A DNA stretch of 24,121 nt from a virus, in the UHGV virus genome UHGV-0136745; one strand, given 5' to 3'. The stretch's first letter is position 1; each line of letters opens with the position of its first letter. This document shows, piece by piece, positions 1 to 22,277 of this stretch. The translations under genes were made by a program, and so were the position numbers. The notes under the pieces were generated by a model. The model ran no database searches, was not told where the DNA came from, and saw only the letters and a program-made list of their open reading frames with translations.

Positions 1-330
1 TACAACCCCCGAAGTATTAGCCTTGTTCCTTGTCGTGTTGCGGTTGTTATCAATCTTAGCTACTTTTCTCAAGTTTAATATTCTATTGTCATCCCTTATG
101 TGATTTATATGGTCTATCTCAAATCCTGTAGTCAGAACATCATTAGGGTTGCACATATCCCAAATTATTCTGTGAACAGGGATATGCTTGTTTTTATGTT
201 TCACGCGCACGTACCCATCGCGCTCCTTTGTGCCTGCTACTAAACTTCTTTTTGCACCCCTACGCCACTTTTTCCATGATAGTACCCCGGTATTGTGGTC
301 GTAATTGAAAATCTCATCCCAATAGGTCAT
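1..330 (-). CDS. HNH homing endonuclease (HNH_3-like), 3' end cut by window edge
   Basis: Reverse-strand translation from ATG at 330..328 gives MTYWDEIFNYDHNTGVLSWKKWRRGAKRSLVAGTKERDGYVRVKHKNKHIPVHRIIWDM...IDHINHIRDDNRILNLRKV..., the HNH_3 pattern (GY.V...H..VHRIIW...IDHIN...DNR..NLR). Open to position 1. ATG overlaps the helicase stop (ATGA). Absent from ORF track because no stop lies in the window. Confidence 0.7.
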   Translation of the reverse strand, partial: MTYWDEIFNYDHNTGVLSWKKWRRGAKRSLVAGTKERDGYVRVKHKNKHIPVHRIIWDMCNPNDVLTTGFEIDHINHIRDDNRILNLRKVAKIDNNRNTTRNKANTSGVV

Positions 331-1751
331 TTTTTACCTCTGCGCTTCATATACTCTAGTAATATGTCTTGTACTTGCTTTTTCTCGTCGGTACGAGCCG
401 CAACTACTTCATCCAAGGTATCTTTTGCGATTATATGGTAGATAAATACCGCTCTATTATAGCCCGCTTGTTTTTGACGGGTTGGACCTATGCGCTCAAC
501 AACCTGCAAATAGTGCTCAAGGTTCCAGCCTTGCGAAATAAACGCCAGATGATGTCCGCCGTCCTGTAAATTTAAACCGTGCCCGGCTGACGCCGGATGC
601 ACACACAAAATCTCGATTTCACCTCTGTTCCACGCTTCCATCTGCTTGTTACCCTTAGCACCTTTGGCAAACGCCTGCGCCTGCGGAAAACGTTTCAGGA
701 TGCGCTCCAGTTCGTGTTTAAACTGATAGGCCACCAGTAACGGCGCGCCCTGTAACTCCTCAACAATGGACTCCAGCGCATCCAGTTTCGTATCGTGTAC
801 TTTCTCCCAGTCTTTCGTTGCCTCGCCGTCCGGCCCTGATACATACACGGCACCGGATGCAATCTGCAAACACTTCGACGTCTTCGCCGCTGCGTTAGCC
901 GCCTCAACTTCTCCGCTCTCCAGTTCCGCAAATAACTTTTCCTCCATATCGATGTACGCCTGACGCGCTTTCTTCGGCAGGTCGATTTCAACCGGTACGA
1001 TAATGGGCGCCTCGCATCCAAACCACTCGGCGGGGTCGATGGTTAGACTGATGTCTTTCATCTTCTGATGAATTTCATTATCCGCACCCGGGCGCGCGTG
1101 ATACTCCCGTGCCATAGCGGATTTACCCTTCTGTACCGAATTAAACCAGCGGTCGGTGAACGCGGTGTATGAAGAGCCAAGACGCTCGCCGCCGTCTATA
1201 AACCAGTTCTGGCCCCAAAGGTCTTTGAGGCCGTTAGGCGATGGTGTACCGGTCAGATTAATGAAGCGCTTAACCTTCCCGAATGCTACCTTACTGAGCG
1301 CCTTTGCCCGCTTACTGCCACCAGAACGGCTACGGAAAGATTTCAGCTTCGTGCTCTCATCAGCGACGATAACCGTGAAAGGCCAGTCGTCTTTGCCATA
1401 GTAGTCAATCAGCCACTCGATAACTTCGTAGTTAGTGCACACCACATTAGCGTCGGACTCCAGCGCCGCGATGCGGCGCTTCTCTGAACCGGTTGCGTCT
1501 ACTACACGTAGCGTAGGGAAATTCCACTTCTCCTGTTCCGCGGGCCACGTACCTGACGCAACACGTAACGGGGCAAGGATTAACACGCGGTCGTCGTCCG
1601 TAAGTTGCCCATTACGGAACAGCCTGTTAAGGACCCACATAGTAGAGGAGGTTTTACCCCCTCCCATACCACACCAGATATTACAACGTGGGTGCTGTAG
1701 CATGAACGAAGTCATGAGCTTTTGGTATTCGCGCCTTTGGAATTTAGACAT
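327..1751 (-). CDS. Superfamily 2 DNA helicase (DEAD/DEAH-box, SNF2-like)
   Basis: ORF 327..1784; Walker A GMGGGKTSS, motif II DESTKLKS, ILAPLRVASGTW and LTGTPSPNGLKDLW typical of SNF2-type helicases. Start placed at internal ATG 1751 (MSKFQRREYQ), which has a GAGG SD and sits 5 nt from the upstream gene stop; 1784 is the alternative. Confidence 0.8.
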   Translation of the reverse strand: MSKFQRREYQKLMTSFMLQHPRCNIWCGMGGGKTSSTMWVLNRLFRNGQLTDDDRVLILAPLRVASGTWPAEQEKWNFPTLRVVDATGSEKRRIAALESDANVVCTNYEVIEWLIDYYGKDDWPFTVIVADESTKLKSFRSRSGGSKRAKALSKVAFGKVKRFINLTGTPSPNGLKDLWGQNWFIDGGERLGSSYTAFTDRWFNSVQKGKSAMAREYHARPGADNEIHQKMKDISLTIDPAEWFGCEAPIIVPVEIDLPKKARQAYIDMEEKLFAELESGEVEAANAAAKTSKCLQIASGAVYVSGPDGEATKDWEKVHDTKLDALESIVEELQGAPLLVAYQFKHELERILKRFPQAQAFAKGAKGNKQMEAWNRGEIEILCVHPASAGHGLNLQDGGHHLAFISQGWNLEHYLQVVERIGPTRQKQAGYNRAVFIYHIIAKDTLDEVVAARTDEKKQVQDILLEYMKRRGKK

Positions 1752-2427
1752 GGTTAGCCTCGTAAACTGCTTTTGCGAAACCACGCGGAGTTAACGAGCG
1801 GATTACCTTAGTGCGCGCGCTCTTGCCCCCCAACTTCTTGTGCTGGTCAGAATACCCAGCACCAACGGCAACGGGCTTAACCTCCGGCATAACGAAGCCG
1901 TTGCCAACCCACAGACACGTCTTTTTAGGATACGCATCTCGCGGCTTTATGTACTCGGGGAAGGTCGGGTGTGTATCATCCTCTGGCAAGTAGCCGCCGT
2001 ATTCGAACGGGTCAAACGTATAATCTGGCTTACGCCACATAGAGGAAAGCACGCTAACCGGATTCTCAATCATATACGGCACGTTGTATTTCTTCGCCAG
2101 ACGAGCCGCTACTTTACATGTGATAACTGCTTCAACCTGAAACGTTGCATTCTTTTTACGCTTAGCTTCAAAATGCGCAGCCCCGCTTACAGCAAGGTCA
2201 GTACACGGCGGGAACGCGAAAATAATATCTGGCGCTACGTCGAAGTCGAACTTGTTATCAATCCATGCGTTTACATAGTGAATATTCTCGTGCTGAACCT
2301 TAGCGCCGGCAGTGTTGTAGTCGCCGTGGTCGGCATCATCGTAATTGAAACAATAGCAAGTATGGCCTGCTTCCGCCCACGGCTGGACCATAAGGCCCGA
2401 ACCGTCAAACAGTGACCAGATAATCAT
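1744..2427 (-). CDS. DNA (cytosine-5)-methyltransferase-like protein, unusually compact (227 aa)
   Basis: Motif I-like SLFDGSG (FxGxG AdoMet site), motif IV-like FPPCTDLAVSG (catalytic PC), motif VI-like MIENPVS (ENV), C-terminal RSLTPRGFAKAV resembling the R.LTPRE.AR element. Far shorter than typical C5-MTases; no obvious target-recognition domain. ATGA overlap with upstream ORF. Confidence 0.55.
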   Translation of the reverse strand: MIIWSLFDGSGLMVQPWAEAGHTCYCFNYDDADHGDYNTAGAKVQHENIHYVNAWIDNKFDFDVAPDIIFAFPPCTDLAVSGAAHFEAKRKKNATFQVEAVITCKVAARLAKKYNVPYMIENPVSVLSSMWRKPDYTFDPFEYGGYLPEDDTHPTFPEYIKPRDAYPKKTCLWVGNGFVMPEVKPVAVGAGYSDQHKKLGGKSARTKVIRSLTPRGFAKAVYEANHV

Positions 2428-2615
2428 TTCAGCACCAGCACCAGTTCTTTACGCCCGAACGCCGTAACGTTACCTGTTACGTCCTCGATAACCAGTTTAC
2501 CGTTCGACTCGACGAACACCGTATCAACGGCGACAGGCTGGCGCGTCTTAACGTTGAAAATCATGTCACCTGGTACGATGTCACGTGCGGGTTTGCGGTC
2601 ATATTCGTGTTTCAT
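2424..2615 (-). CDS. hypothetical protein (63 aa)
   Basis: ORF in operon orientation; stop overlaps start of the MTase-like gene (ATGA). No recognisable motif. Confidence 0.45.
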   Translation of the reverse strand: MKHEYDRKPARDIVPGDMIFNVKTRQPVAVDTVFVESNGKLVIEDVTGNVTAFGRKELVLVLK

Positions 2616-2645: not shown

Positions 2646-3038
2646 CTAACTATAATAGTTTGCTATTAGGTCGTCAACCTGTTTGAACGAGCCAACGACA
2701 AAAACATTTGCGCCACGTTTACGCATCCGCTCATGTTCCCGTAGCTGGTGAGGGTCTGGCTTCGTGTTTTCGTCTTTCTTTACCTCGACGAACCAGATGA
2801 TGCCGTCGGGGAGAATTACCAGCAGGTCGGGGGCGCCTATTCTATTTTCGTACGACAACTTACGAACGAGGCCCCCGATGGCCTCGAATCGCTCTTTTGC
2901 GTATTTCTGAATCTTGCCTTCCGGGGTCATTAACCGATTATCCTGCTGAAAATAGCCGCGCCCAGTAATAAAGCTACAAGTACAGCGATTATAGTTATCA
3001 TAATACGCACCCCTCGCGTTTAGTATGTTCAATCCCAC
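2646..3038 (-). CDS. VRR-NUC domain nuclease (PD-(D/E)XK fold)
   Basis: C-terminal region GAPDLLVILPDGIIWFVEVKKDENTKPDPHQLREHERM matches the VRR-NUC signature (D...E.K plus downstream Q). Start uncertain: GTG at 3038 or internal ATG at 2930 (MTPEGKIQKY). Confidence 0.6.
   Translation of the reverse strand: MGLNILNARGAYYDNYNRCTCSFITGRGYFQQDNRLMTPEGKIQKYAKERFEAIGGLVRKLSYENRIGAPDLLVILPDGIIWFVEVKKDENTKPDPHQLREHERMRKRGANVFVVGSFKQVDDLIANYYS
2649..2677 (-). promoter_or_regulatory. sigma70-like promoter (reverse strand TTGACG-17 nt-TATAGT) with embedded palindrome AATAG-N4-CTATT
   Basis: Reverse complement of 2649..2677 reads TTGACGacctaatagcaaactatTATAGT. Same architecture as the sites at 6152..6180 and 8998..9026. 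Lies inside the last codons of the VRR-NUC gene. Confidence 0.45.
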
Positions 3039-3083: not shown

Positions 3084-3215
3084 TCATTCCAGCACCCACA
3101 GATAAATTGCGATTAACATACGCAATACGGCGACCATCATGCCGTACTGGCCCTCGTGACAGTAGACACCGGCGGCGAATCCCGCCAGTGCTGTGACAAT
3201 CAGTTTACTTAGCAT
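3084..3215 (-). CDS. possible small hydrophobic membrane protein (43 aa)
   Basis: Reverse-strand ATG at 3215..3213 gives MLSKLIVTALAGFAAGVYCHEGQYGMMVAVLRMLIAIYLWVLE, stop at 3086..3084. Overlaps the polymerase 3' end by 11 nt. Below ORF-track cutoff. SD weak. Confidence 0.3.
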   Translation of the reverse strand: MLSKLIVTALAGFAAGVYCHEGQYGMMVAVLRMLIAIYLWVLE

Positions 3216-5406
3216 AACGTTTCATCTCCGCGCCTTCTGCGACTAAAGGGAACCCCTCGGCCCACTCAGGCAATGCGCACATTAATTTTTCCAGCTCAGC
3301 CACCGTGTACTCCGGTGTATCCGGGGTTTCGCATACCAGTTCATCGTGCACAGAAAGCACGATAGGATACCCACCACCCTCAACATTAACCATTGCATAC
3401 GCAAGTAAATCACGGCACAGCGCCTGAACAATGTTTTCACAGGCCTTGCCGCCGTGTGTGTACAGGGTGGTCCATTGGCGGGTTAACTGGTTTTCACCCT
3501 GGTATTTGATTCGCACATTTGTGTTTACCCGTCCGTCTTCGTCGGTTTCTTTTGTCACACTAACGCCGATTCCTGGATACGATAGAATCCGAGCCGACGG
3601 CAACTCCATACACAACCACCAACCGGGAACTTTCCTGCCGGACGAATCGGTTTCTACTGTTCTCCAGATTCGGATGGCGCGTTCACCATTCTTGCGCAGA
3701 TGCGCCCCTGCCCAAAACTCACGACCCGGATTTCTTACAGCGGCTAAAATTCCATCTTTAAGGTCGCGCCAGAAAGCTACTGTTTCCGGGTGTGACTCAC
3801 GCCACATACGCTTGATCGCGTCGCATGTACGCCAGACTTTCTTATCAAGAATATATGAAGGTCTGTCATCTTTTTCACCGGGACGCGGGGGGCGCTTGGC
3901 TTCCTGAATACGTGCCCACTCGTAACCCCGTGCCGTAGCGGCCCATATATGGTCAGGGAAAGTCCCGTCCATTGTTTTTGCCATCTCAATAAGGTCAAGA
4001 CCTAGGTTTTTAGCAAACGTAACGAACGCTCCTACGCCCCCCTCATAGCCTAGGCCAAGCTCGCAAGCCTTGCCTATCTGTCTGATTTCCTTGAAGTTTT
4101 TCTTAATGTCATCTGGGTCCATGCCGAACATCTTACCTGCGGTTACACAGTAAATATCCAGTCCGGCGCGGAACGTATCGAGCGCGGTTTCTTCTCCTGC
4201 CAGCCATGCCAACCCGCGGCCTTCGACGTTAGAGTAATCGGCGACGACAAACTTATGTCCTGCTTCCGGGATAATGCAGCTACGAACCGTCGATGCCGTT
4301 AGTTTGGCTACGTCAAAACGGCGATGCGCGCGCCCCTTAAGTAGCGCCGCAATTCCTTTATCCAGTTCATCGTCATGATAGTACCCGCGCGCCAGGTTCT
4401 GTGGCTGGAAGCCTTTACCCGCCCATCGCAGAGTACGTTTCGCCCCGCCGTACTGCAAGCAACCACGGCGGCGGTCGTCAGAAGAACGGCCCAACAGCAG
4501 GGGGTTATATTTCGTAGACGCAGTTGACGCCGCGCCCAGGCGCATTTCTATAATCGTGCGCGCATCGTCCGGTAAATCCTCGTCCGCCAGCAGGTCATGA
4601 AGTGTTGACTTCTGCGCATTGTGAATGCGGTGAGCGGGGGCCAGTTCACGCAGAATCGGCAGGAAGTCTTTGCCGGTTAGCGAGCCGCCGTATTTACGCT
4701 GAGCTTCTTCCTGCAACTGCGCCTTGTGTTTCTCTACGGCTTCAATCGCGGATTCCGCCAGAGCGACATCAACCTTAAACCCACGGTCGTTGATTAACTG
4801 GTCCAGTTCCAGAACCCGGTCCTCGAACTCGGAGTTACCCCAACGCGGCAGCTTGTGGAATACTTCACGCATCGCTGTTATGTCGCTCACGGCGTACTTG
4901 ATGAACAACGCCCACTCGTCCGGGTGCGTTTCGGCAGTGTAGCGACGGATTTTATAGTTCTTCGGCGTAGGTTTAGAGAAACGCTGAATCAGCGCCTTGC
5001 CTCGTTTGTCTTTTGCATTGTCCGCAGATACCCCAAGCACTTCACACAACGCATCGAGTGACCCCGGCAGCGCGTGGCGAAACGCCCAAATCATCGTATC
5101 AATGGTGTTGCTGACCGGAATATCGAAGTCCCAGCAGTGCTTCATGATGAGACGGTCGAACATTGAGCCGTTGTGCCAGACCATCTTGATACGGCTGTTC
5201 GGCTTAACCAGGCGGCGCAGTGCACGGTGCAAATCGCCTGGCATGTCGCTGCCGTCTGTGCAATCCCATACCTGAACAGGTTCATCGTCGAAGGCGTAGG
5301 TGCAGATAAGCACTCCGGTAGTCGGGTGTTCGGCGTAGGCATAGGAGCCGACTTTCTTCAAATCGGCTTCGGAGAAGGTTTCAAAGTCCAAGAACAGGTA
5401 ACTCAT
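3205..5406 (-). CDS. DNA polymerase, family A (Pol I-like) with 3'-5' proofreading exonuclease domain
   Basis: 733 aa. Exo I motif FLDFETFS near N-terminus; polymerase motif A VVADYSNVEGRGLAWLAGE, motif B RQIGKACELGLGYEGG (K...YG), motif C LSVHDELV. Confidence 0.9.
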   Translation of the reverse strand: MSYLFLDFETFSEADLKKVGSYAYAEHPTTGVLICTYAFDDEPVQVWDCTDGSDMPGDLHRALRRLVKPNSRIKMVWHNGSMFDRLIMKHCWDFDIPVSNTIDTMIWAFRHALPGSLDALCEVLGVSADNAKDKRGKALIQRFSKPTPKNYKIRRYTAETHPDEWALFIKYAVSDITAMREVFHKLPRWGNSEFEDRVLELDQLINDRGFKVDVALAESAIEAVEKHKAQLQEEAQRKYGGSLTGKDFLPILRELAPAHRIHNAQKSTLHDLLADEDLPDDARTIIEMRLGAASTASTKYNPLLLGRSSDDRRRGCLQYGGAKRTLRWAGKGFQPQNLARGYYHDDELDKGIAALLKGRAHRRFDVAKLTASTVRSCIIPEAGHKFVVADYSNVEGRGLAWLAGEETALDTFRAGLDIYCVTAGKMFGMDPDDIKKNFKEIRQIGKACELGLGYEGGVGAFVTFAKNLGLDLIEMAKTMDGTFPDHIWAATARGYEWARIQEAKRPPRPGEKDDRPSYILDKKVWRTCDAIKRMWRESHPETVAFWRDLKDGILAAVRNPGREFWAGAHLRKNGERAIRIWRTVETDSSGRKVPGWWLCMELPSARILSYPGIGVSVTKETDEDGRVNTNVRIKYQGENQLTRQWTTLYTHGGKACENIVQALCRDLLAYAMVNVEGGGYPIVLSVHDELVCETPDTPEYTVAELEKLMCALPEWAEGFPLVAEGAEMKRYAK

Positions 5407-5464: not shown

Positions 5465-6094
5465 TTAACCACGGCGACGACGTTCGCGGCGCGGTGCTTC
5501 ATCTTCTTCGTCGTCTTCCAGGTCATTGACGCTGGCCGCAACTTTAGAACCACCGAACGCTTTACCCTCGCCGACATATTTAATCGCCAGCAGGTTAACA
5601 CCGAGAACTTTGTACTTCTGGCTAAACCAGACTTCCACGCTTACGTTAGCAACGCAGCCGCTGTAAACCTGTTCACCTTCAATCTGTTCACCTTCGACAT
5701 TGAAGTCTGGCTCTACCTGAGTTTCACCTTTTTTAGAGGTTACAATCAGAGGTTGTTTCTGCGCCTTCGCTTTGAAGTAGAAACCTTCAGGGAAGTCTTC
5801 AAAAGGATTATCACGCTCGGCGATGTCCTTAATAGCACATTTATCCATGTGCTTGCCTTCGCCGTAGTTTGACTTCATCCACTTCTCGGCAGCGGCGGCC
5901 CCCAGTGCTTCTTCTACAACCGCGTAAACGGTGTCGTACATTTCGTCGATTTGCGCATGGTCAGACGGCAGGATGATAGTGGCGCTGTACTGACCTTTAG
6001 TGATAGAGCCATCGTCGTTTTCACGGTCTTTTTCGCGTTCGAATACGTTAACCCATGCAGTGTTTACTTTACGCAGATTTAATTTCAGTCCCAT
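5465..6094 (-). CDS. putative ssDNA-binding protein (DUF2815-like by architecture)
   Basis: 209 aa with acidic C-terminal tail (NDLEDDEEDE) then a basic end. Sits between a Cas4-like nuclease and Pol A, the position usually occupied by DUF2815 SSB proteins next to DUF2800-type nucleases. Assignment rests on context and composition. Confidence 0.45.
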   Translation of the reverse strand: MGLKLNLRKVNTAWVNVFEREKDRENDDGSITKGQYSATIILPSDHAQIDEMYDTVYAVVEEALGAAAAEKWMKSNYGEGKHMDKCAIKDIAERDNPFEDFPEGFYFKAKAQKQPLIVTSKKGETQVEPDFNVEGEQIEGEQVYSGCVANVSVEVWFSQKYKVLGVNLLAIKYVGEGKAFGGSKVAASVNDLEDDEEDEAPRRERRRRG

Positions 6095-6151
6095 TTGATT
6101 TCTCGCTTTTAAGTTTCGTTTACTCCGGGAGCTGCCCGGCCAGTGATTAGA

Positions 6152-6180
6152 ACTATAATAGCTAACTATTCAGTAGTCAA
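6152..6180 (-). promoter_or_regulatory. sigma70-like promoter (reverse strand TTGACT-17 nt-TATAGT) with embedded palindrome AATAG-N4-CTATT
   Basis: Reverse complement reads TTGACTactgaatagttagctatTATAGT. A CCGGG/CCCGG hairpin lies in the predicted 5' UTR (6126..6140) ahead of the SSB-like gene. Confidence 0.5.
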
Positions 6181-6184
6181 CACT

Positions 6185-6367
6185 TTATTCTAAATCTTCT
6201 TTCTTACACATCTCTAAAAAGGCTTTGTACGAGGTTATTCTAAATACCCGGTCAACAGCCTTAGACTTGCTTCTGTGAAGAACATGCACTAGTCCTCTTT
6301 TCTTTCGGGCCATAAACTCATCTAAATACGCCCGGCGCAATTGCTCAACTGTACTTGATTTACTCAT
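6185..6367 (-). CDS. hypothetical small basic protein (60 aa)
   Basis: ORF 6185..6397; start placed at internal ATG 6367 (MSKSSTVEQLRRAY), which overlaps the nuclease stop as ATGA. Confidence 0.45.
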   Translation of the reverse strand: MSKSSTVEQLRRAYLDEFMARKKRGLVHVLHRSKSKAVDRVFRITSYKAFLEMCKKEDLE

Positions 6368-7611
6368 TCTAAATCCTCCTCTGTTACCTGATTCCACTCA
6401 GGCCGTTTGTCGTCTGCCGTTGCTACGCACGGTGCACCTGGCTTACGTGTGATGAAGTCTTTCAGTTCTTCTTCCGGTATAACCTTAACCGCTTCGCTCG
6501 GCGTCATGAGAACAACTTTGTTTAGCATAGTGCCGTATGCCTCAGCCACCTTGTCAGCGTCTTTCCACGCACGATTACCCGGACGACCTTCTACCAGCTT
6601 GTAACCCGGCACTTTCTTACCGGAATGCAACGCGGCAGCCATAGCTTTCTCAACCTTGTCGATGTGCTGGCGCAACAACGGCAACTTCTCATACTCAGCG
6701 ACGAGTTGCTCAAGTGTCAATTCCAGCGCGAAGTCGTCCTCCAGTTCTTCTGCCAGTACCGAATTAACCGTCTTCGTTCTGGCGGCACACTGTTCTGAGA
6801 ACCTACACCACTGGCAACCGTCCGCCGACGGCTTGAAGTCCGACGCTTTCAGGTTCTTCTTACCGCGGAAGTACGCATCGAGTGCTAACAGCGCGCGTTT
6901 CTGTGCGAACTTAGCGAACAGTTCAAGACCTTCAACCGAGATATCCCACTCCGACGCACCACCGGCATACGGCTGGAATATGACCAGACGAACAGTTGTT
7001 ATGTTATAACGTCTCTTGAGTCGGCGATAAACACCGAGAGCATAGAGCATAAGCTGCTTGTTTTCTTTCGCTTCTACACGATGCCGTCCTGTTTTCAGGT
7101 CGCCGATAATGAGCATGTGTTCGTCAGTGTTCGCCAGTTCCTGAACGGCAACGAGGTCTGCAGTTCCGAATGTCTCAACGCCTTCGTATCCCGGATGCAG
7201 TACCTCAGTAAGATTGACGCGCATTTCAAGCTTGGCGTAAGTCGCTACGTCGATAATAGCTTTGCAGTAGTCGGTATACTTTCGCACCTGCTCAATCATG
7301 TCCGCTGTAATCAGTACCGCGCCTTCCATCGGGCTGATTAGCGCCTTAATCTGGCCTTTACCTTCATCCAGCACGTAAGCGCCGACTTCGCGTTCTAACG
7401 GCAGCGCAGTGCCCCGGATATAGGCGTTTAGGTGCACTTCTGCTATTGTATGACATGCGGTCCCCGTAACGGCAGCTTTACCGGATGTGTTCGGGATGTC
7501 TTTTTCACAGGCCAGTGATGCGGCACAGGTAAGCCACTTTTTAGCACCTGATGGCGACAGTAAGGCGTGCACATCGTTATTGCCGCCGCGTTCTTTTAGC
7601 TTCATGCTCAT
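6364..7611 (-). CDS. Cas4/RecB-family PD-(D/E)XK exonuclease with Cys cluster (DUF2800-like)
   Basis: Motifs ADLVAV...IIGDLKTG (D / D.K nuclease core) and C-terminal CQWCRFSEQC plus N-terminal Cys, consistent with a 4Fe-4S Cas4-like nuclease. Start at 7611 (ATGA overlap with upstream 50-aa ORF) or 7626. Confidence 0.8.
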   Translation of the reverse strand: MSMKLKERGGNNDVHALLSPSGAKKWLTCAASLACEKDIPNTSGKAAVTGTACHTIAEVHLNAYIRGTALPLEREVGAYVLDEGKGQIKALISPMEGAVLITADMIEQVRKYTDYCKAIIDVATYAKLEMRVNLTEVLHPGYEGVETFGTADLVAVQELANTDEHMLIIGDLKTGRHRVEAKENKQLMLYALGVYRRLKRRYNITTVRLVIFQPYAGGASEWDISVEGLELFAKFAQKRALLALDAYFRGKKNLKASDFKPSADGCQWCRFSEQCAARTKTVNSVLAEELEDDFALELTLEQLVAEYEKLPLLRQHIDKVEKAMAAALHSGKKVPGYKLVEGRPGNRAWKDADKVAEAYGTMLNKVVLMTPSEAVKVIPEEELKDFITRKPGAPCVATADDKRPEWNQVTEEDLE

Positions 7612-7760
7612 AAGTTCCAACCCCATTTAACTTTACGCGTTTTGCGTTTGCAGGCAACCGTGTCGCCGCTACGGTTGAAAATAATCAGCCAAGTTGAGTT
7701 ACTCACTCGAAAAGGCTGGTGACGTCTAACAAATAGAAGTCGCGCTTTACGGTTCGTCAT
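7608..7760 (-). CDS. small basic protein (50 aa), unannotated in ORF track
   Basis: Reverse-strand ATG at 7760..7758 preceded by GGAGG (spacing 7). Translation MTNRKARLLFVRRHQPFRVSNSTWLIIFNRSGDTVACKRKTRKVKWGWNL. ATGA overlaps at both ends with neighbouring genes. Confidence 0.45.
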   Translation of the reverse strand: MTNRKARLLFVRRHQPFRVSNSTWLIIFNRSGDTVACKRKTRKVKWGWNL

Positions 7761-8307: not shown

Positions 8308-8808
8308 TTATTCTTCTTCGAAATACTTGTTCTTAATCGCCGTCAGGCGTTCCAGGTATTCGGCCAGGTCTTCGTCTTTAATCGCGGCAATCTTCATCTT
8401 CTTACCGGTGAACTCTTCCAGCAGTTCATCGGAGTCGTCACACGCGGCATCGCTCGGGCCTTCGTTAATCGCATCGTCGATAGCCTGAATCTGGTCACGC
8501 AGAGACTGGTAATCGACTTCTTCTTTATCCTCTTCCGGCTCTGGCGCAGGATCCTCTACCTTAGCTTTACGTTGCTTGCGCTTCGGTTTCTCTTCTTCCG
8601 CCGGTTTAGTGTCGATAACTTCTTCACCTTCTACCGGGATTTCTTTTGTTACTTCTTCGGCGCACTCGGATACCTCTTCTTTGGCATACACTACCGTCTC
8701 TACTTCTAAAGGCGCTGCAACTTGTGCTGGCTGTTTCGCACTGTTAGCTGCAATCAGTTCATGTGCAACTACGAAACGTTCCAGTAATTTCAGAAATTGT
8801 TCTAACAT
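8308..8808 (-). CDS. highly acidic early protein (166 aa), function unknown
   Basis: Strongly Glu/Asp-rich (e.g. VEDPAPEPEEDKEEVDYQ, SDAACDDSDELLEEF, ends YFEEE). AGGAG SD 8 nt upstream of ATG 8808. First sizeable gene downstream of the leftward promoter at 8998..9026. Confidence 0.6.
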   Translation of the reverse strand: MLEQFLKLLERFVVAHELIAANSAKQPAQVAAPLEVETVVYAKEEVSECAEEVTKEIPVEGEEVIDTKPAEEEKPKRKQRKAKVEDPAPEPEEDKEEVDYQSLRDQIQAIDDAINEGPSDAACDDSDELLEEFTGKKMKIAAIKDEDLAEYLERLTAIKNKYFEEE

Positions 8809-8851: not shown

Positions 8852-8965
8852 TCAATTACGTCTATTTATGTAGTCTGATACCGTGTCCTTAACTAGCACA
8901 CATACTACATACATCAGGATTGCTATCGACGCTAGTAATACTATTGTTATGCTATCTGTGTGCAT
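8852..8965 (-). CDS. possible small membrane peptide (37 aa), unannotated in ORF track
   Basis: Reverse-strand ATG at 8965..8963 preceded by GAGAGGAGAG SD. Translation MHTDSITIVLLASIAILMYVVCVLVKDTVSDYINRRN has one hydrophobic helix-length stretch. Lies in the leader between promoter and acidic-protein gene. Confidence 0.35.
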   Translation of the reverse strand: MHTDSITIVLLASIAILMYVVCVLVKDTVSDYINRRN

Positions 8966-8997
8966 TTTGTTTCTCTCCTCTCGTTTGGTATGAGCTA

Positions 8998-9026
8998 ACT
9001 ATAATAGCAAACTATTCACCTGTCAA
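8998..9026 (-). promoter_or_regulatory. sigma70-like leftward promoter (TTGACA-17 nt-TATAGT) with embedded palindrome AATAG-N4-CTATT
   Basis: Reverse complement reads TTGACAggtgaatagtttgctatTATAGT: consensus -35, 17-nt spacer, near-consensus -10. Divergent from the HTH gene promoter. Confidence 0.55.
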
Positions 9027-9029
9027 CGC

Positions 9030-9058
9030 TTTTTATCAAAAAATTAATATGCTACTAT
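9030..9058 (+). promoter_or_regulatory. putative rightward promoter for HTH gene (-10 TACTAT, weak AT-rich -35)
   Basis: gCTACTATTCAcaTATC at 9051..9067 matches the -10 and downstream part of the 12546 and 13921 promoters; upstream is AT-rich (TTTTTA) rather than a good -35. Confidence 0.35.
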
Positions 9059-9089
9059 TCACATATCAATCAGCTAAGGAGTAACCATT

Positions 9090-9314
9090 ATGCAACAGTC
9101 ACCAATTGGCGCTCGTATGGAGCAACGCCGTAAAGAGCTTGGCCTGTCCCAGCGCCGTTTAGCTACTCTGGTCGGCGTTTCCCAGGGGGCGATTAACCAA
9201 CTTGCCCTCGGCGTAACTCAAGATGTCCGTCGCACCACTCTGTTTAAACTTGCGGAAGTTCTCGAAGTTAAGCCAGAGTGGTTAGCTTTCGGTGACCAGA
9301 CTCAAGGGGCTTAA
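9090..9314 (+). CDS. HTH-XRE family transcriptional regulator (Cro/CI-like)
   Basis: 74 aa; ELGLSQRRLATLVGVSQGAINQLALG is a classic XRE helix-turn-helix. AAGGAG SD upstream. Only rightward gene in this region. Confidence 0.85.
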   Translation: MQQSPIGARMEQRRKELGLSQRRLATLVGVSQGAINQLALGVTQDVRRTTLFKLAEVLEVKPEWLAFGDQTQGA

Positions 9315-9329
9315 CGCCCCTTTCTTTTT
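9305..9329 (+). terminator. intrinsic terminator after HTH gene
   Basis: AGGGGC-ttaac-GCCCCT stem-loop overlapping the stop codon, followed by TTTCTTTTT. Confidence 0.55.
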
Positions 9330-9331
9330 AC

Positions 9332-11596
9332 CTATTCCAAATCCTCCTCAGTCACTACCAGCATTTCGTTCGGTTCGTACACGGTCTTCGGTATCTTGCT
9401 GTCGTTAATCCTGGTGTTTAGCCTGTATCGCCCAGGTATTATCTGATTGTTCTCGTCAGTACCGGGTACAAGATATCCTGCTTCAACCATTTTCTTAATC
9501 TTACCGCGCTCTATAGCTTCCTTAGAGTTGAACGCCTTTGCATTAGGGTCAGACTGCGCAAGCTTATTAGCTGCGGCTACTGTGATACCTTCGTTGCCGT
9601 TGTAGGTTCCCTCCGCCAGTTCAAACGCAGCCAGTATCGTGGCTTCTGAACTGTTTACTGCGTTCTCTACGGTTTTTCGTACATTTTCTTTACCTTCCTT
9701 TGTCAGCCCTTCTTCCTTCTCTTTCTCTTCGTCAGTCTTGAATGGCTCAAAGCCCCACGGCATCAACACGAGCGCCTTATGTGGCTCCGGTAGGTCGAGG
9801 TTTACGATTGTGCCGTATTCCTCGGTGCTGCCGATGAATTCTACCGCGCGGTACGCCTTCGGAGGAGGGGCTTCACGGAACTGTACTGACTCCAGCACCA
9901 TGCCAATCGTTTTCTGTTGCGGCCCGTGCTTAAATTTAGTGTGTGACACGTTAATCTGGCGGTCGGTTGCACGTTCAATTGTCAGTTCCACATCGACACC
10001 CGCATACAGCGCACCACTGCCACGGGCTTTCTTTCCACCTTTTGGCGTGTGATGGACCACACCAACGGCGGCTTTAGTCGCGTCGCGGACTTCTTTCAGT
10101 ATGGCTATAACTTTACCCATACCGATTGCCGTTGATGAACTATTCTCGTCGAACTTATCAATCGTCAGGGCCAGCGTCTGGTTAAGGGTGTCGAACGCAA
10201 CCATGCCAATTGGCTCATCGCCAGCAGTTTCGCGCATCAGCTTAATCAGGCTTTTCAGTTTGCCGACGTCGCCCATATCGATAACGTGGATGTAGTTCTT
10301 CCCTTCCTCTCCGTACTTAGCCGCGAGCGCATCAATACGTGTGCGCGTAGCTGCACCGCCCTCACCATCGATATAAAAGTGATGGCAGCGTTGGGTGTCC
10401 GCACCTGCAAACCGATATCCGGCAGCGCTCAGGTACATCATGCCAAGGGTGTAGAAAGACTTATATGTGCCGGACTCACCGACAATATCCCAGATACAGT
10501 CCGACGGCATATAGCCCTCGACGACGAAATCGGCCTTTACCGGTTCCGGTAAATCGTCTTCCTCAGAGTCGTCGTCTTCCAGGTCGTCAAGGCTACATTC
10601 GACCGTTTCACGTGCACCCCAGCCGATGGCCTCAGCGACTTCACTGAACGGCAGCCCTGTCGCTTCGCAAGCGTATTTCCACACCTCTTTCGGCGACATC
10701 CCCTCTGTTGCCGTTAGGTCGGTGTCGTGAATCATGGTTACGTTAGGCGCAGCGTAGCCCTCGCGCGGGAAGCACAGCAGGAAATCATCCGGGCGCGGTG
10801 TCGGGTCACTGTAGTTCTCGGCGTGCTCAGGCGTCGCTGGCATCTTCAGACCACGTGGTGTAATGACACCGCCATACTCGAATGCCAGTGCTTCGAACGC
10901 GTCCGTAAACGCTGTGCGCAGTTCTTCCGGTATCTGGTAGTCGGATGCGCTGCTTACCTCGTAATCCGGGACTCCTTCCAGCAGACGGTCAGGGTCAATC
11001 ATGCCATTTCGGCGAGACCAGACGACCTCAGAGTTAACTGGCGGCAGGTACATCGGCTGGGACAGGGTAAACCCGCTGCGGTCAGCACCCATGCCTTTAA
11101 AGAAGTGCTCCAGCAGCCCGTGGCGGACGCGGATGATATCACCACCCTCTACCGGACGCGCCAGCGGCATGACGACACGGAAACGCGGTGATTCGTCGGT
11201 GTGTGATGCCGTGGTGTAAAGGCACATTGCTACACGGCTGCGCTTAACCAGACGCACAGCTTCCTGATACTCTTCTGGCGTCGCGCTGTCAAAATCCAGA
11301 TAAGCCAGTGACGATTTACTTACTGACGCGTCACAGCGGTAGAAGAAGCCCCGTCTCGCCTGTTTAAACTCGCCCGTTTCCGGGTCTTTCACGGTGCTGT
11401 GTGTTGAGCCGCACGCGGCAGTAATGTACCCCGGCGCGGTCTTTGGGTTAATCCCGTCACGAACGGCGTCAAGTGGCTGGATTAACTCTTTAAGGTCGTC
11501 CAGTGTTGCCGTGTGAGTGGTTCTGACGTTTATATCCTTTTTCTCCGCCCGCGCGTTGCGGCGAGACCATGAATAGGATAAAATTACATCGGACAT
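9332..11596 (-). CDS. DNA primase/helicase (primase-polymerase N-terminal region plus RecA-fold helicase domain)
   Basis: 754 aa. Walker A-like VGESGTYKSF, later VVHHTPKGGKKARGSGALYAGVDVEL (RecA/DnaB-like helicase motifs), acidic linker (DDLEDDDSEEDD). Size and position fit phage primase-helicase fusions. Confidence 0.8.
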   Translation of the reverse strand: MSDVILSYSWSRRNARAEKKDINVRTTHTATLDDLKELIQPLDAVRDGINPKTAPGYITAACGSTHSTVKDPETGEFKQARRGFFYRCDASVSKSSLAYLDFDSATPEEYQEAVRLVKRSRVAMCLYTTASHTDESPRFRVVMPLARPVEGGDIIRVRHGLLEHFFKGMGADRSGFTLSQPMYLPPVNSEVVWSRRNGMIDPDRLLEGVPDYEVSSASDYQIPEELRTAFTDAFEALAFEYGGVITPRGLKMPATPEHAENYSDPTPRPDDFLLCFPREGYAAPNVTMIHDTDLTATEGMSPKEVWKYACEATGLPFSEVAEAIGWGARETVECSLDDLEDDDSEEDDLPEPVKADFVVEGYMPSDCIWDIVGESGTYKSFYTLGMMYLSAAGYRFAGADTQRCHHFYIDGEGGAATRTRIDALAAKYGEEGKNYIHVIDMGDVGKLKSLIKLMRETAGDEPIGMVAFDTLNQTLALTIDKFDENSSSTAIGMGKVIAILKEVRDATKAAVGVVHHTPKGGKKARGSGALYAGVDVELTIERATDRQINVSHTKFKHGPQQKTIGMVLESVQFREAPPPKAYRAVEFIGSTEEYGTIVNLDLPEPHKALVLMPWGFEPFKTDEEKEKEEGLTKEGKENVRKTVENAVNSSEATILAAFELAEGTYNGNEGITVAAANKLAQSDPNAKAFNSKEAIERGKIKKMVEAGYLVPGTDENNQIIPGRYRLNTRINDSKIPKTVYEPNEMLVVTEEDLE

Positions 11597-11654
11597 GTGT
11601 ATATTCCTTCAGCAAGTAATTTGGCCTCGGCGTTCACCGCGTCGGGGCTTTCTT

Positions 11655-11945
11655 TTAACGTTTAGCCAGACATTCCATTAAATGTGAATATTTTCTGTAA
11701 TAGCAAGGAACTAAATCACACCCAAAATAATGATAAACATAATCCAAGTGGTCGGTAACATCTATAGCGGCCGACATTGTGCTAAGACGGCGAAGGCTAA
11801 TCAACTGTAATTCTTCCGTAATGCAAAATGGCTCATACGTATCAAGTTTGCAAGAAACGTTAAAACACAGAGCATAGCCGTCTTGTGCGGAGTGGACCAG
11901 AAATGCACTGTCGTTCTCTTTATCGTGAAAAATTACACCTTTCAT
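11655..11945 (-). CDS. hypothetical protein (96 aa)
   Basis: ORF in operon orientation; start overlaps stop of upstream AlpA-like gene (ATGA). No recognisable motif. Confidence 0.45.
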   Translation of the reverse strand: MKGVIFHDKENDSAFLVHSAQDGYALCFNVSCKLDTYEPFCITEELQLISLRRLSTMSAAIDVTDHLDYVYHYFGCDLVPCYYRKYSHLMECLAKR

Positions 11946-12112
11946 CTCACATTCTCCTTAACCCACGCTTCTACTTTATTTCGGTCAAACGTACCCGGCA
12001 TACGGCGGCCCATTACTTTAACGCTGCAATCAGGGAACTTCCCGCTTTTAATCCAGTTGTTTATTGTCTGGCGAGTAACTCCGATTAATTCTGCAACCTC
12101 GTTTATAGTCAT
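11942..12112 (-). CDS. AlpA/excisionase-family HTH DNA-binding protein (56 aa)
   Basis: MTINEVAELIGVTRQTINNWIKSGKFP is the AlpA/Xis-type HTH signature. Start at internal ATG 12112 with AGGAGA SD; track ORF extends to 12184 with an implausible Cys-rich N-terminus. Confidence 0.65.
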   Translation of the reverse strand: MTINEVAELIGVTRQTINNWIKSGKFPDCSVKVMGRRMPGTFDRNKVEAWVKENVR

Positions 12113-12522
12113 TTCACGCTCTCCTGTGTAAGATGTAGTGAAGTATAAAGCGGTAACTTTGTAAAAGCAACCAAAACAACACACAAAGCACTAAGATACA
12201 AAAGATGCTACTGGTATTGACTTTTACTTAAAAATATGCTAAGCTTCACTGAGCTTGTGAGATATCGCAAGCGACCGCGGAGCGGCAGGGAACGCAACGC
12301 GTGCCATCAGGCACTTGAGTGTAGTTCCGCTGGCGCTTTCGGAAGGGCCAAAGTCTATTGTTAATCACGCCTAAATACCCAAGTCACTGATAATTAAAGT
12401 TTCTATAGTTGCCGTAAGCAAGGTAGCGAGTACTTCACTCCGCTGGGGTGGGCTAACGCCCACCCACTGCGTTGCGTACTCTTTTAAGAAAACGAAGAAT
12501 CACAACGGCAACGAATCTTCGC

Positions 12523-12551
12523 TTGCACACCCCAATATAATAGGCTACTAT
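12523..12551 (+). promoter_or_regulatory. rightward promoter (TTGCAC-17 nt-TACTAT) with embedded palindrome AATAG-N4-CTATT
   Basis: cTTGCACaccccaatataataggcTACTATtcacttatcgaaacgag; about 45 nt are near-identical to 13896..13940. Precedes the first small-gene operon. Confidence 0.45.
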
Positions 12552-12585
12552 TCACTTATCGAAACGAGACAGATGAGTGGGGGTT

Positions 12586-12777
12586 ATGTTTAAGAAGGGT
12601 CAGTTGGTGCGAACCGCAGACGGCATCTATGGAGTTATCGAAAAAGAGAGTACTGTGTATCGAAGGTCGTATATAGTCCGTTCTCTTTATATCAGCGGGT
12701 CAGTATCTGTGCTGGTTTGCGACATAAATGAGCTACTACTCATCGGCAACAATTTTAAATTCAAAGGGGCGAAGTGA
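12586..12777 (+). CDS. hypothetical protein (63 aa)
   Basis: ATG 12586 preceded by GAGTGGGGG; alternative GTG at 12577. First gene of rightward operon. Confidence 0.5.
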   Translation: MFKKGQLVRTADGIYGVIEKESTVYRRSYIVRSLYISGSVSVLVCDINELLLIGNNFKFKGAK

Positions 12778-13897: not shown

Positions 13898-13926
13898 TTG
13901 CACACGTAGATATAATAGACTACTAT
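13898..13926 (+). promoter_or_regulatory. rightward promoter (TTGCAC-17 nt-TACTAT) with embedded palindrome AATAG-N4-CTATT
   Basis: cTTGCACacgtagatataatagacTACTATtcagttatcgaaacgag; near-identical to the 12523 promoter cassette. Confidence 0.45.
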
Positions 13927-13957
13927 TCAGTTATCGAAACGAGAGGAGAGACAGAGC

Positions 13958-15067: not shown

Positions 15068-15485
15068 CGGTAAGACGATGGCCTGCGACACCCGGGTTAC
15101 CTGCGGAGACACGTTCTGCAACACCGATACCAAGATATACGAGAACGATGCTTATGTTATCGGGGTCGCCGGTGACGCGGGTGTCGGAACTATGCTCGTT
15201 CAGGTGTCAAATATCCTGACTATGCGTACTTATGAGTATAACTTCCAGGCTATCGTATATGAGAAACATACCCAACGTATCTTCTATGTGTCGTTCGATA
15301 AAAAATGGGAGTCAAATAGCAGCGTTGTCCCAATTGTTGATAGCTACTTCGCCGTCGGTTCAGGGGCTGATTTCGCGCGCGCAGCTATGTATTTAGGTAA
15401 CACCGCAACACGCGCTGTTACGGTAGCTGCAGAGTTCGACATAAACACGGGGGGCAAGATTATTACCAAACCATTATTCGGATAA
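15048..15485 (+). CDS. HslV/proteasome beta-subunit-like N-terminal-nucleophile (Thr) peptidase
   Basis: From ATG 15048 (GGAGAAAG SD): MTTIAFDGK... with Thr directly after Met, as in HslV (TTIVSV...); VIGVAGDAG vs HslV VIAGFAGGTAD; YFAVGSGADFARAAMYLG vs HslV LIAIGSGGPYAQAAARAL. No HslU-like ATPase in the window. Confidence 0.65.
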   Translation: MTTIAFDGKTMACDTRVTCGDTFCNTDTKIYENDAYVIGVAGDAGVGTMLVQVSNILTMRTYEYNFQAIVYEKHTQRIFYVSFDKKWESNSSVVPIVDSYFAVGSGADFARAAMYLGNTATRAVTVAAEFDINTGGKIITKPLFG

Positions 15486-15501
15486 TTCCTAACCGTGGTA
15501 T

Positions 15502-15853: not shown

Positions 15854-16127
15854 GTTATTCTGGTTTGGCGGTATGCTCGCAATCGGGGGCACATCGCTGT
15901 TTAATGTATACCACCCCAGCGTAGATGATGGCCTGTTTGGGCGTGTGCTGTATATCCTCACTGCTATTGTTTGCGCCGCCGGTTGCATCCACCTGCTACA
16001 GGGCAGCATGTCACCGACGCTGCCGGAAACATTAATCACCCTGGTAGCGCTGCGACAGATTCGCCAGTCGTGGCTGCATTACCAGTCGAAAGGAGGGCAT
16101 AAGCGTGTCTCGAAACATTTCAGATAA
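15846..16127 (+). CDS. second holin/antiholin-like protein, two predicted TM segments
   Basis: From internal ATG 15846 (overlaps upstream stop): MTELFWFGGMLAIGGTSLF..., LYILTAIVCAAGCIHLL, basic C-terminal tail. Track ORF starts at 15753. Confidence 0.5.
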   Translation: MTELFWFGGMLAIGGTSLFNVYHPSVDDGLFGRVLYILTAIVCAAGCIHLLQGSMSPTLPETLITLVALRQIRQSWLHYQSKGGHKRVSKHFR

Positions 16128-16590
16128 TGGCTTGCATTTCTGCGCCGAGTTCGAAGGCTTCCGTGGAACTGCGTACCGCGCTACGCCGGATGAGAAGTAC
16201 CTGACTATAGGCTACGGGCATTATGGCGCAGACGTTAAGCCTGGTCAGACTATCACGCCGGGGCAAGGCCTCCTGCTACTCAATCGCGATATGGCTAAGG
16301 CGGTAGCCGCCGTTGATGCCGCGGCGCATCACTCACTGACGCAGGGCCAGTTCGACGCAGTATGCGACCTGGTGTTTAACGCAGGTGCTGGCGTTATCGC
16401 GGCTACTACCGGTACTGGTAAGGCCCTGCGCGCAGGTGACATTGCTACGCTGCGGGCTAAGCTGGCGCTGTTTATCAACCAGAACGGCAAACCGTTACTC
16501 GGCCTGCGCCGCCGTACAGCCGGGCGTCTGGCATTGTTCGACGGTAAACCGTGGCAAGAGGCGGTTGCTATCGGGAGGGCGGTAAAATGA
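16105..16590 (+). CDS. endolysin, GH24 lysozyme (T4 e / lambda R-like fold)
   Basis: N-terminal GLHFCAEFEGFRGTAYRATPDEKYLTIGYGH carries the Glu...Asp...Thr catalytic arrangement of phage-type lysozymes. GTG start with AAAGGAGGG SD. No TM segment, so holin-dependent. Confidence 0.85.
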   Translation: MSRNISDNGLHFCAEFEGFRGTAYRATPDEKYLTIGYGHYGADVKPGQTITPGQGLLLLNRDMAKAVAAVDAAAHHSLTQGQFDAVCDLVFNAGAGVIAATTGTGKALRAGDIATLRAKLALFINQNGKPLLGLRRRTAGRLALFDGKPWQEAVAIGRAVK

Positions 16591-16832: not shown

Positions 16833-16853
16833 TCTATTTTCTGTAATGACTAG

Positions 16854-16882
16854 TTGACTATTACTCTGACACCAATTATATT
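16854..16882 (+). promoter_or_regulatory. sigma70-like promoter (TTGACT-17 nt-TATATT)
   Basis: ttGACTagTTGACTattactctgacaccaatTATATTtact, about 30 nt upstream of the 16916 gene and just after the terminator. Confidence 0.45.
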
Positions 16883-16915
16883 TACTCCATCGACAACGAT
16901 AACGGAGTAGAGAAG

Positions 16916-22251: not shown

Positions 22252-22273
22252 AGCCCCGAAAGGGGCTTTCTTA
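22252..22273 (+). terminator. weak terminator/attenuator hairpin between portal and head morphogenesis genes
   Basis: AGCCCC-gaaa-GGGGCT followed by TTCTTAT (short, interrupted U tract). Confidence 0.35.
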
Positions 22274-22277
22274 TAGT

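Follow-up and report, generated by a model that had tools for sequence, protein, structure and literature searches.

Palindromes embedded in the promoters of a Kagunavirus-like phage, and a Cro-like protein proposed to bind them

Why should one short palindrome recur in promoter after promoter of a phage, at different places relative to the promoter hexamers, and what might read it? The question is raised by a stretch of 24,121 nucleotides from the virus genome UHGV-0136745 (hereafter the window, meaning the whole stretch analysed), where the palindrome AATAG-N4-CTATT lies in a strong promoter that diverges from the gene of a small helix-turn-helix (HTH) protein of the XRE type. A first-pass annotation made from the letters alone took this to be one operator shared by two divergent promoters. 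The palindrome is a real, conserved element embedded in promoters and not a chance match. I propose that it is an operator within promoters of the host's sigma-70 type, bound by a dimer of the adjacent XRE protein, which would repress through occlusion with a strength graded by the quality of each site. Judged from the pattern of the sequences, this is probably the right reading, though it is some way from assured.

The core, AATAGNNNNCTATT (AATAG-N4-CTATT, 14 bp), occurs exactly five times in the window, at 2654, 6157, 9003, 12539, and 13914, as against no match in 100 dinucleotide-preserving shuffles and none expected. The extended form of the element is TGAATAG-N4-CTATTAT, and the 18-mer TGAATAGNNNNCTATTAT finds 11 matches at three or fewer mismatches where 1.67 are expected. 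The six copies in the early region, read on the minus strand, all conform to T(T/C)GA(C/T)A-NN-TGAATAG-N4-CTATTAT, and they serve promoters on both strands. Two further copies have one mismatch each, one at the -10 of the HTH gene (9046..9059) and one at the -35 of a late promoter (16849..16862). The sites in question, together with one promoter that lacks the palindrome, are these (the number between hexamers is the spacer length in bp):

2649..2677, minus strand: class A promoter, TTGACG-17-TATAGT, with an exact operator at 2654..2667 (18-mer CTAATAGCAAACTATTAT)
6152..6180, minus strand: class A promoter, TTGACT-17-TATAGT, with an exact operator at 6157..6170
9026..8998, minus strand: leftward promoter (class A), TTGACA-17-TATAGT, an 11/12 match
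9003..9016, minus strand: operator O-A3, AATAG-TTTG-CTATT, an exact core, in the leftward promoter's spacer and one base into its -10
9046..9059, plus strand: operator O-H, AATAT-GCTA-CTATT, whose left arm departs from the core at one base
12171..12143, minus strand: promoter of the helicase-primase operon, TTGCTT (12171..12166)-17-TATACT (12148..12143), palindrome absent
12523..12551, plus strand: class B promoter, TTGCAC-17-TACTAT, with an exact operator at 12539..12552 over the -10
13898..13926, plus strand: class B promoter, TTGCAC-17-TACTAT, with an exact operator at 13914..13927
16854..16882, plus strand: class C promoter, TTGACT (16854..16859)-17-TATATT (16877..16882), with an operator at 16849..16862, ACTAG-TTGA-CTATT, one mismatch

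The three classes differ in where the palindrome falls. If transcription begins 7 nt past the -10, then in class A (2649..2677, 6152..6180, and 8998..9026; TTGACN-17-TATAGT) the core lies in the spacer and reaches one base into the -10, from about -25 to -12. In class B (TTGCAC-17-TACTAT; 12523..12551 and 13898..13926, together with the HTH promoter, which has this -10 and a poor -35) the palindrome is shifted 6 bp relative to class A and the 18-mer is inverted, so that the core covers the -10, from about -19 to -6. In class C (16854..16882; TTGACT-17-TATATT) it covers the -35, from about -40 to -27. The earlier claim that one architecture recurs at 2649..2677, 6152..6180, 12523..12551, and 13898..13926 is right in that all four sites exist; they fall into two registers, with the class B pair lying inverted over the -10. 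Three registers and two orientations with respect to the sigma-70 hexamers argue for an operator rather than a core-promoter element.

The hexamers themselves, -35 and -10 at 17-bp spacing ahead of transcription units, match consensus at 10-11 of 12 positions in class A, about 8 of 12 in class B, and 10 of 12 in class C. Every operator-bearing spacer in the window is 17 bp (18 bp in some relatives' orthologues of A3). The number of promoters predicted in the region is not above that in shuffles (24 versus 20.7), and for that reason the sigma-70 assignments rest on position and conservation. They are supported by the constant distance of 11-12 nt, in classes A and B, from the -10 to a common leader (AACGAGAGGAG).

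Then there is the evidence from relatives. By Megablast the window falls in the Guernseyvirinae, virulent siphophages with genomes of about 43 kb, and is Kagunavirus-like, with about 85% identity to the E. coli Kagunavirus phages AV104, fFiEco03, and K1H/K1ind; no record reaches a coverage of at least 80% of the 6.5-kb query. The motif search advised in the first-pass annotation, over the genome and related phages, gave besides the five exact copies in the window a positive result in all 41 Kagunavirus-like loci examined. A test independent of the motif, in which orthologous promoters were retrieved by their leader sequence with the motif unused, gave the same picture: of the distinct orthologous sequences, 23 of 25 for the A2 promoter (6152..6180) and 25 of 28 for the A1 promoter (2649..2677) have the core intact, each exception having one changed base. 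The central N4 and the 2-3 nt past the -35 vary among these orthologues. Complete genomes have 9-11 sites, every one just upstream of a transcription unit, and in complete relatives class B sites also occur on the opposite strand within the structural region, ahead of genes for a sliding-clamp-like protein and a superinfection-immunity protein. (In phage Snoke, L002, such a class B promoter and its operator, 15399..15412, lie inside an annotated 110-aa 'superinfection immunity' coding sequence, 15167..15496; the homologue in phage buks has only 60 aa, and the Snoke start codon is probably placed too far upstream.)

Conservation extends beyond the genus. In two Jerseyvirus genomes the core is kept at the orthologous promoters, with T or A in place of the flanking G. 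Serratia phage Smarc3 has TGAATAG-AATA-CTATTAA at the promoter of its single-stranded DNA-binding protein (SSB) and polymerase genes, and two more promoter sites with one mismatch; its sites stand at class A and class B positions. O-A3 is conserved in the Kagunavirus loci, and the Jerseyvirus orthologue has a mismatch in one arm. The imperfect sites are conserved as imperfect sites: the AATAT arm of O-H is found in all 14 distinct upstream sequences, representing 38 loci, and the mismatched ACTAG arm of class C in every Kagunavirus sequence retrieved by anchor. At the late promoter the defective arm even switches sides between genera, from ACTAG-TTGA-CTATT in Kagunavirus (window 16849..16862) to AATAG-TTGA-CTAGT in Jerseyvirus (L003 near 41225, L007 near 25253). 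Such arms, kept imperfect while changing sides, suggest selection for an intermediate affinity.

Could all of this be had with no trans-acting factor? The palindrome might be part of a promoter cassette, inherited and duplicated along with its leader, or the promoter of a phage-specific polymerase. The sites do share a flanking leader (ACCAAACGAGAGGAGAGA or ATCGAAACGAGAGGAGAGA), which marks them as paralogues, and the orthologous promoters of Salmonella phage vB_SenS_SE1 (hereafter SE1) look intact without the palindrome. The polymerase idea has been published: the same 20-mers, found in phage fBC-Eco01 with PHIRE and given the consensus tgAATAGTa-ccTATTat-T, are listed as 'phage RNAP promoters' PP1-PP7 and assigned to a phage-encoded RNA polymerase (PMC9825357). 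It is the same element, and the seven locations match its positions in other complete Kagunavirus genomes. However, the annotation of a complete relative lists neither an RNA polymerase nor a sigma gene, and Pfam detected none in the ten large open reading frames (ORFs) of the window that were scanned. No single, fixed promoter element could account for a sequence that is inverted with respect to the direction of transcription in class B and covers the -35 in class C; such shifts in register and orientation point to an operator. As for the cassette, sigma-70 promoters do not as a rule conserve the bases of their spacers, yet in this element the two arms persist from genus to genus, and it is the N4 centre and the adjoining spacer bases that change. 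Either version of this idea is, in my estimate, unlikely.

Two further readings were discarded. A promoter for a phage RNA polymerase, including the N4-type hairpin promoter, was rejected on the lack of a polymerase gene among the large ORFs scanned or in complete relatives, on the variable orientation and register, and on the position of the sites upstream of the inferred starts, where they would not be transcribed. An RNA element was rejected as well: a search of the window against Rfam gave no match, and the hairpin of the A2 leader is no more stable than in shuffles (z = 0.15).

The divergent pair at the HTH gene deserves a closer look, with these features on either side:

8965..8852, minus strand: 37-aa ORF, heading the nuclease operon and divergent from the XRE gene
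9090..9314, plus strand: gene of the 74-aa HTH_3 (XRE) protein, by Pfam
9304..9322, plus strand: intrinsic-terminator-like hairpin that ends the HTH transcript

The leftward promoter is as first described, with the palindrome in its spacer and -10 (core 9003..9016; 18-mer TGAATAGTTTGCTATTAT at 9001..9018, minus strand). Within 20 kb no site comes closer to a sigma-70 promoter, and it drives the 37-aa ORF, then 8308..8808, and on to the nuclease. The related element that had been seen at the HTH promoter, CTACTATTCA at 9052..9061, is there too; it proves to be the right arm of a palindrome with one mismatch, O-H, which covers the -10 (TACTAT, 9053..9058) of the HTH gene's own promoter. What does not survive is the sharing of one operator by the two promoters. 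O-A3 and O-H are separate, 43 bp apart from centre to centre (44-45 bp in relatives), and since the spacing runs from 43 to 45 bp, a fixed helical phasing between them was dropped from consideration. A Cro/CI-type repressor is expected to have dyad operators of 14-18 bp that overlap promoters beside its own gene, and O-A3 and O-H flank the divergent pair in this way. The XRE gene adjoins the strongest operator and promoter, and its own operator is weaker. A divergent, autoregulated arrangement is typical of regulators of the Cro/CI type.

If the palindrome is an operator, which transcription units does it govern? The gene map, drawn from synteny with fFiEco03 and Snoke plus Pfam, is as follows:

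327..1784, minus strand: SNF2-type helicase (synteny, Pfam)
2424..2615, minus strand: ORF, first in the class A operon with the SNF2-type helicase
3205..5406, minus strand: DNA polymerase A (synteny, Pfam)
5465..6094, minus strand: Enc34-type single-stranded DNA-binding protein (synteny, Pfam)
6364..7626, minus strand: DUF2800/PD-(D/E)XK nuclease (synteny, Pfam)
8308..8808, minus strand: ORF between the 37-aa ORF and the nuclease in the leftward operon
9332..11596, minus strand: helicase-primase (synteny, Pfam), convergent with the HTH gene
11942..12112, minus strand: 56-aa HTH_17 (excisionase/MerR-like) protein (Pfam)
12586 to about 16590, plus strand: rightward small genes, the last being the lysozyme gene (16105..16590)
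18916, plus strand: terminase, led into by small genes and followed by portal and head genes (synteny, Pfam)

Among the class A promoters, the one at 2649..2677 serves 2424..2615 and the SNF2-type helicase and is itself located in the ORF upstream, at its 3' end, and that at 6152..6180 drives the Enc34-type protein and DNA polymerase A. The class B promoter at 12523..12551 drives the rightward small genes from the ATG at 12586, and that at 13898..13926 drives the genes from 13958 through the lysozyme gene. The class C site, in extended form TGACTAG-TTGA-CTATTAC at 16847..16864, has the T-run of a terminator upstream, and its promoter heads the small genes ahead of the terminase and structural genes. 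The first-pass annotation had counted six copies, one at the head of every early operon, and had confined their control to the early programme. Both statements must be given up. The site at 16847..16864 is a seventh, it belongs to a late promoter, and complete relatives have the motif at the opposite-strand promoters in the structural region, so that late and moron promoters also fall within the regulon. The operon of HTH_17, orf96, and helicase-primase (12112..9332) is served by a conserved promoter, at 12143..12171, without the palindrome, and alone among the early transcription units it stands outside the regulon. I considered whether the class B element nearby might double as a bidirectional promoter of that operon (antisense TCGATA-17-TATATT), and dropped the notion in view of the separate, conserved TTGCTT-17-TATACT just upstream.

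The protein that the first-pass annotation thought the obvious regulator is the XRE protein encoded at 9090..9314. It matches HTH_3 (PF01381) with an E value of 3.2e-13 and 50 bits, against a Pfam cutoff of 23. The closest sequence to it in the PDB, by phmmer, is 434 Cro (E 5e-7), and the N-terminal domains of 434 repressor and P22 c2 are also found. An AlphaFold2 (AF2) model has five helices and a mean pLDDT (the model's per-residue confidence) of 76.8, and the top matches to it by Foldseek in the PDB are 2cro, 1adr, 3jxb, and 3cro, at TM scores of 0.68-0.73; the fold is the five-helix one of 434 Cro and the P22 c2 N-terminal domain. The recognition helix in Kagunavirus reads SQGAINQL, and the glutamine at the start of helix 3 is invariant. 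Operators of 434 are 14-bp dyads, ACAA-N6-TTGT, with conserved outer bases and an uncontacted centre, and the A at position 1 is read by the glutamine at the start of helix 3. The XRE protein is, moreover, the only HTH protein found in every lineage that has the motif. RNA-seq of the Kagunavirus K1B4, which resolves timing at the level of genes only, puts the HTH-domain gene K1B4_008 among just four that peak early (PMC12645636); from gene order, K1B4_008 would be the XRE orthologue.

A different phage protein might bind the operators instead, either the HTH_17 protein (11942..12112; Pfam HTH_17, E 2e-9) or some uncharacterised small early protein. HTH_17 has its attractions: it is 75% identical between Kagunavirus and Jerseyvirus, above the 50% of the XRE protein and in keeping with an unchanged core; it is absent from SE1, where the palindrome is lost; and the one early promoter that lacks a palindrome is its own. 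But in phage LM02P1 the HTH_17 helix is strongly divergent (GVSPMTLNRW versus GVTRQTINNW) with motif and XRE protein unchanged, and Smarc3 has no HTH_17 homologue while it keeps sites of classes A and B. Because these two phages keep the motif with a divergent HTH_17 or none, the XRE protein is favoured. Small winged-helix domains of the excisionase type, besides, as a rule recognise direct repeats, and do so as monomers, rather than dyads of 14 bp. Another phage protein in place of XRE is an improbable solution.

Several observations nonetheless weigh against XRE-bound operators. The XRE recognition helix differs at four of eight positions between Kagunavirus (SQGAINQL) and Jerseyvirus (SQSLITHL), and the ten core bases are unchanged; the proteins as a whole are 50% identical, and the only change in the operator that goes with the change in helix is the shift of the flanking G to T or A, which is weak evidence of covariation. 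In SE1 the orthologous promoters keep their -35 and -10 and have lost the palindrome, and an XRE homologue is present all the same (38% identical, helix TQSAISHL). No replacement motif could be defined in the SE1 promoters, only recurring half-sites resembling GATTAGT. SE1 lacks HTH_17 as well, and so cannot by itself separate the two proteins. The promoter of the XRE gene has a poor -35, and its expression is only assumed. A search for homologues in independent genomic contexts gave only close relatives, the longer of whose contigs are about 26-45 kb, the size of a phage; the IMG/VR loci L045-L048, at most 43% identical, belong to temperate phages, where the genes are of the CI type and AATAG dyads are absent. 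O-H and the class C site score 9.8 and 6.5 with the position weight matrix, below the shuffle maximum of 16.1, and are counted because of their position and conservation, not that score. Finally, since the copies within a genome are paralogous cassettes with a common leader, their similarity is in part due to descent.

SE1 and Smarc3 differ from the other phages in gene order. In both (SE1, L079 4112..7002; Smarc3, L082 5989..8757) the helicase-primase module is inverted and the HTH_17 gene missing, so that the XRE gene heads the helicase-primase operon rather than converging on it. SE1 is classified in the Guernseyvirinae, and the Smarc3 record has no assigned taxonomy.

How would operators bound by the XRE protein work? 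I propose that the 74-aa protein is made early, from its weak promoter, and that its dimer, once bound, blocks RNA polymerase at all three operator positions. As its level rose, targets would be turned down in the order of operator quality: perfect operators, at the promoters of replication and small genes, would be filled first, and those with one defective arm, at its own promoter (that is, autoregulation) and at the late promoter, would be filled last. The helicase-primase operon would escape control. The transcription starts, the binding, its repressive sign, and this hierarchy of affinity are what I infer; the sites, their registers and conservation, and the family and fold of the protein are what the analysis shows. 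A bolder version holds that the strictly virulent Kagunavirus and Jerseyvirus phages, much used in therapy and biocontrol, time almost their whole transcription programme with one Cro-like protein and graded operators, with perfect dyads at the replication, small-gene, and moron promoters and dyads of one defective arm at the protein's own promoter and the late one; that is possible, but I regard it as doubtful. If it were true, it would amount to a minimal temporal switch of a single protein, without CI, and an operator core common to different genera could bring about transcriptional cross-exclusion between related phages in the same cell.

The sign of the effect could also be otherwise. The XRE protein might bind as an activator or dual regulator, repressing class A and helping the weaker class B promoters or the late class C, by analogy with phi29 p4 and lambda cII. 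Class B hexamers, at about 8/12, are indeed weaker than those of class A, at 10-11/12; the operator's position differs systematically by class; and in class C the site has its centre at the -35, the place at which activators of the lambda cII type bind. Against this, a core lying over the -10, as in class B (about -19..-6), is incompatible with known modes of activation, the class C promoter is already good at 10/12, and 17-bp spacers throughout leave no need for realignment of the MerR type. Sites for a MerR-type spacer-binding activator had in any case to be rejected, since these would be dyads in over-long spacers of 19-20 bp, and spacers in the window are 17 bp. Activation by the XRE protein seems to me quite unlikely.

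It is still less probable, and I would put it very low, that a host transcription factor, such as one like TrpR, binds the motif and couples phage transcription to host physiology. Class C ACTAGTTGACTATT does match the trp operator ACTAGTTAACTAGT at 14 of 18 positions, the late site in each genus has one CTAG-type arm, and a core unchanged across phages with different XRE helices is what a host factor would predict. However, six of the seven sites in the window have CTAT, not CTAG, in both arms, and the change from CTAG to CTAT is known to cripple TrpR binding. The motif is lost in SE1 even though its host genus is that of the Jerseyviruses, and an enterobacterial factor that recognises AATAG-N4-CTATT is not known to me. 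TrpR operators proper, with two CTAG-centred half-sites 8 bp apart, were rejected, only one class C arm having CTAG and the other arms CTAT/ATAG; more generally, the host factors TrpR, ArgR, and Cra do not fit in spacing or half-sites. The late-promoter forms of both genera each resemble half of the trp operator.

Repression by the XRE protein would be a known kind of switch, that of a Cro-like repressor, met in uncommon circumstances: the phage is virulent, lacks CI, and has a single operator at each promoter concerned. Like 434 Cro, the protein is a single-domain HTH_3 protein of about 70 aa and five helices, with 434 Cro its best match in sequence and fold and P22 c2/Cro also close; its gene diverges from a strong promoter and has an operator of its own. 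Like the 434 OR and OL sites, the element is a dyad of 14 bp that overlaps promoter hexamers, its outer 4-5 bp conserved and its central 4-6 bp variable. Unlike the 434 system, it has the half-site AATAG and not ACAA, single operators (seven in the window, 9-11 per genome) in place of tripartite OR/OL arrays, and no CI partner or integrase. A lambdoid CI/Cro switch between lysis and lysogeny, which would call for a divergent CI-type repressor with a cleavable C-terminal domain and an integrase, was rejected: the gene divergent from XRE is the 37-aa ORF, and in Snoke, a complete relative, CI, integrase, and excision module are all lacking.

Other systems share the dispersal of the sites or the fold. 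P1 C1 and the 'stoperators' of mycobacteriophage L5 gp71 are cases in which one repressor acts on many operators scattered over separate promoters and transcription units; they are immunity repressors of temperate phages with asymmetric sites, and those of L5 also act inside transcription units. The sites here, in contrast, are symmetric and strictly promoter-embedded, in a phage without a lysogeny module. The controller (C) proteins of restriction-modification systems and the Aca-type anti-CRISPR regulators, which regulate themselves by feedback, as dimers bound to short inverted repeats at the promoters of their own genes, have the same small XRE fold, and C.AhdI and C.BclI are among the fold matches. 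Those regulators govern one local operon, whereas most promoters of this genome carry the site.

No experimental work on the element or the protein was found in the literature beyond PMC9825357 and PMC12645636, and the only published mention of the element is as the promoter label for a polymerase that these phages do not encode. Guernseyvirinae (Kagunavirus and Jerseyvirus) have repeatedly been isolated for phage therapy and food biocontrol, and their transcription programme is essentially uncharacterised. Reading the palindromes as operators offers a testable model, in which a repressor module of the temperate style would run gene timing without lysogeny. It suggests, as a matter open to test, that related phages in a cocktail could disturb one another's early transcription, and it would provide well-defined, repressible promoter parts for engineering these phages.

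Some smaller observations concern the sequences around the promoters. A mechanically called 80-aa ORF (GTG at 12184) overruns the promoter of the helicase-primase operon; the real start of HTH_17 is the ATG at 12112 (56 aa), which is preceded by a Shine-Dalgarno sequence (caggagag) and by TTGCTT-17-TATACT. Several promoters share a 5'-untranslated cassette (8966..8997, 12553..12585, 13928..13957, and 16883..16915) with the sequence (A)TACCAAACGAGAGGAGAGA, ATCGAAACGAGAGGAGAGA, or ATCGACAACGATAACGGAGTA. A 35-bp stretch comprising -10 and leader recurs at 97% identity in the T1-like Drexlerviridae phage P818 (L080 2501..2535), where a terminator hairpin occupies the place of the palindrome and -35. 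The SSB-polymerase leader (6100..6146, minus strand) contains a hairpin, CCGGG-N5-CCCGG, that is kept in Kagunavirus, Jerseyvirus, and SE1, and the Smarc3 leader has a hairpin of different sequence there; this is the A2 hairpin whose stability does not exceed that of shuffles (z = 0.15), and it could be a translational or RNA-processing signal.

A possible eighth site, weak, is TATAG-TATG-CTATT at 22272..22285, directly after the terminator-like hairpin downstream of the portal gene. Three Kagunavirus genomes keep it, its matrix score lies inside the shuffle range, and it has no convincing -35. Between the helicase-primase promoter and the first rightward class B promoter is a GC-rich, non-coding stretch of about 340 bp (12190..12520) with local dyads and no Rfam match. 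It is highly variable between otherwise close relatives, and may represent an origin or else an RNA not yet characterised.

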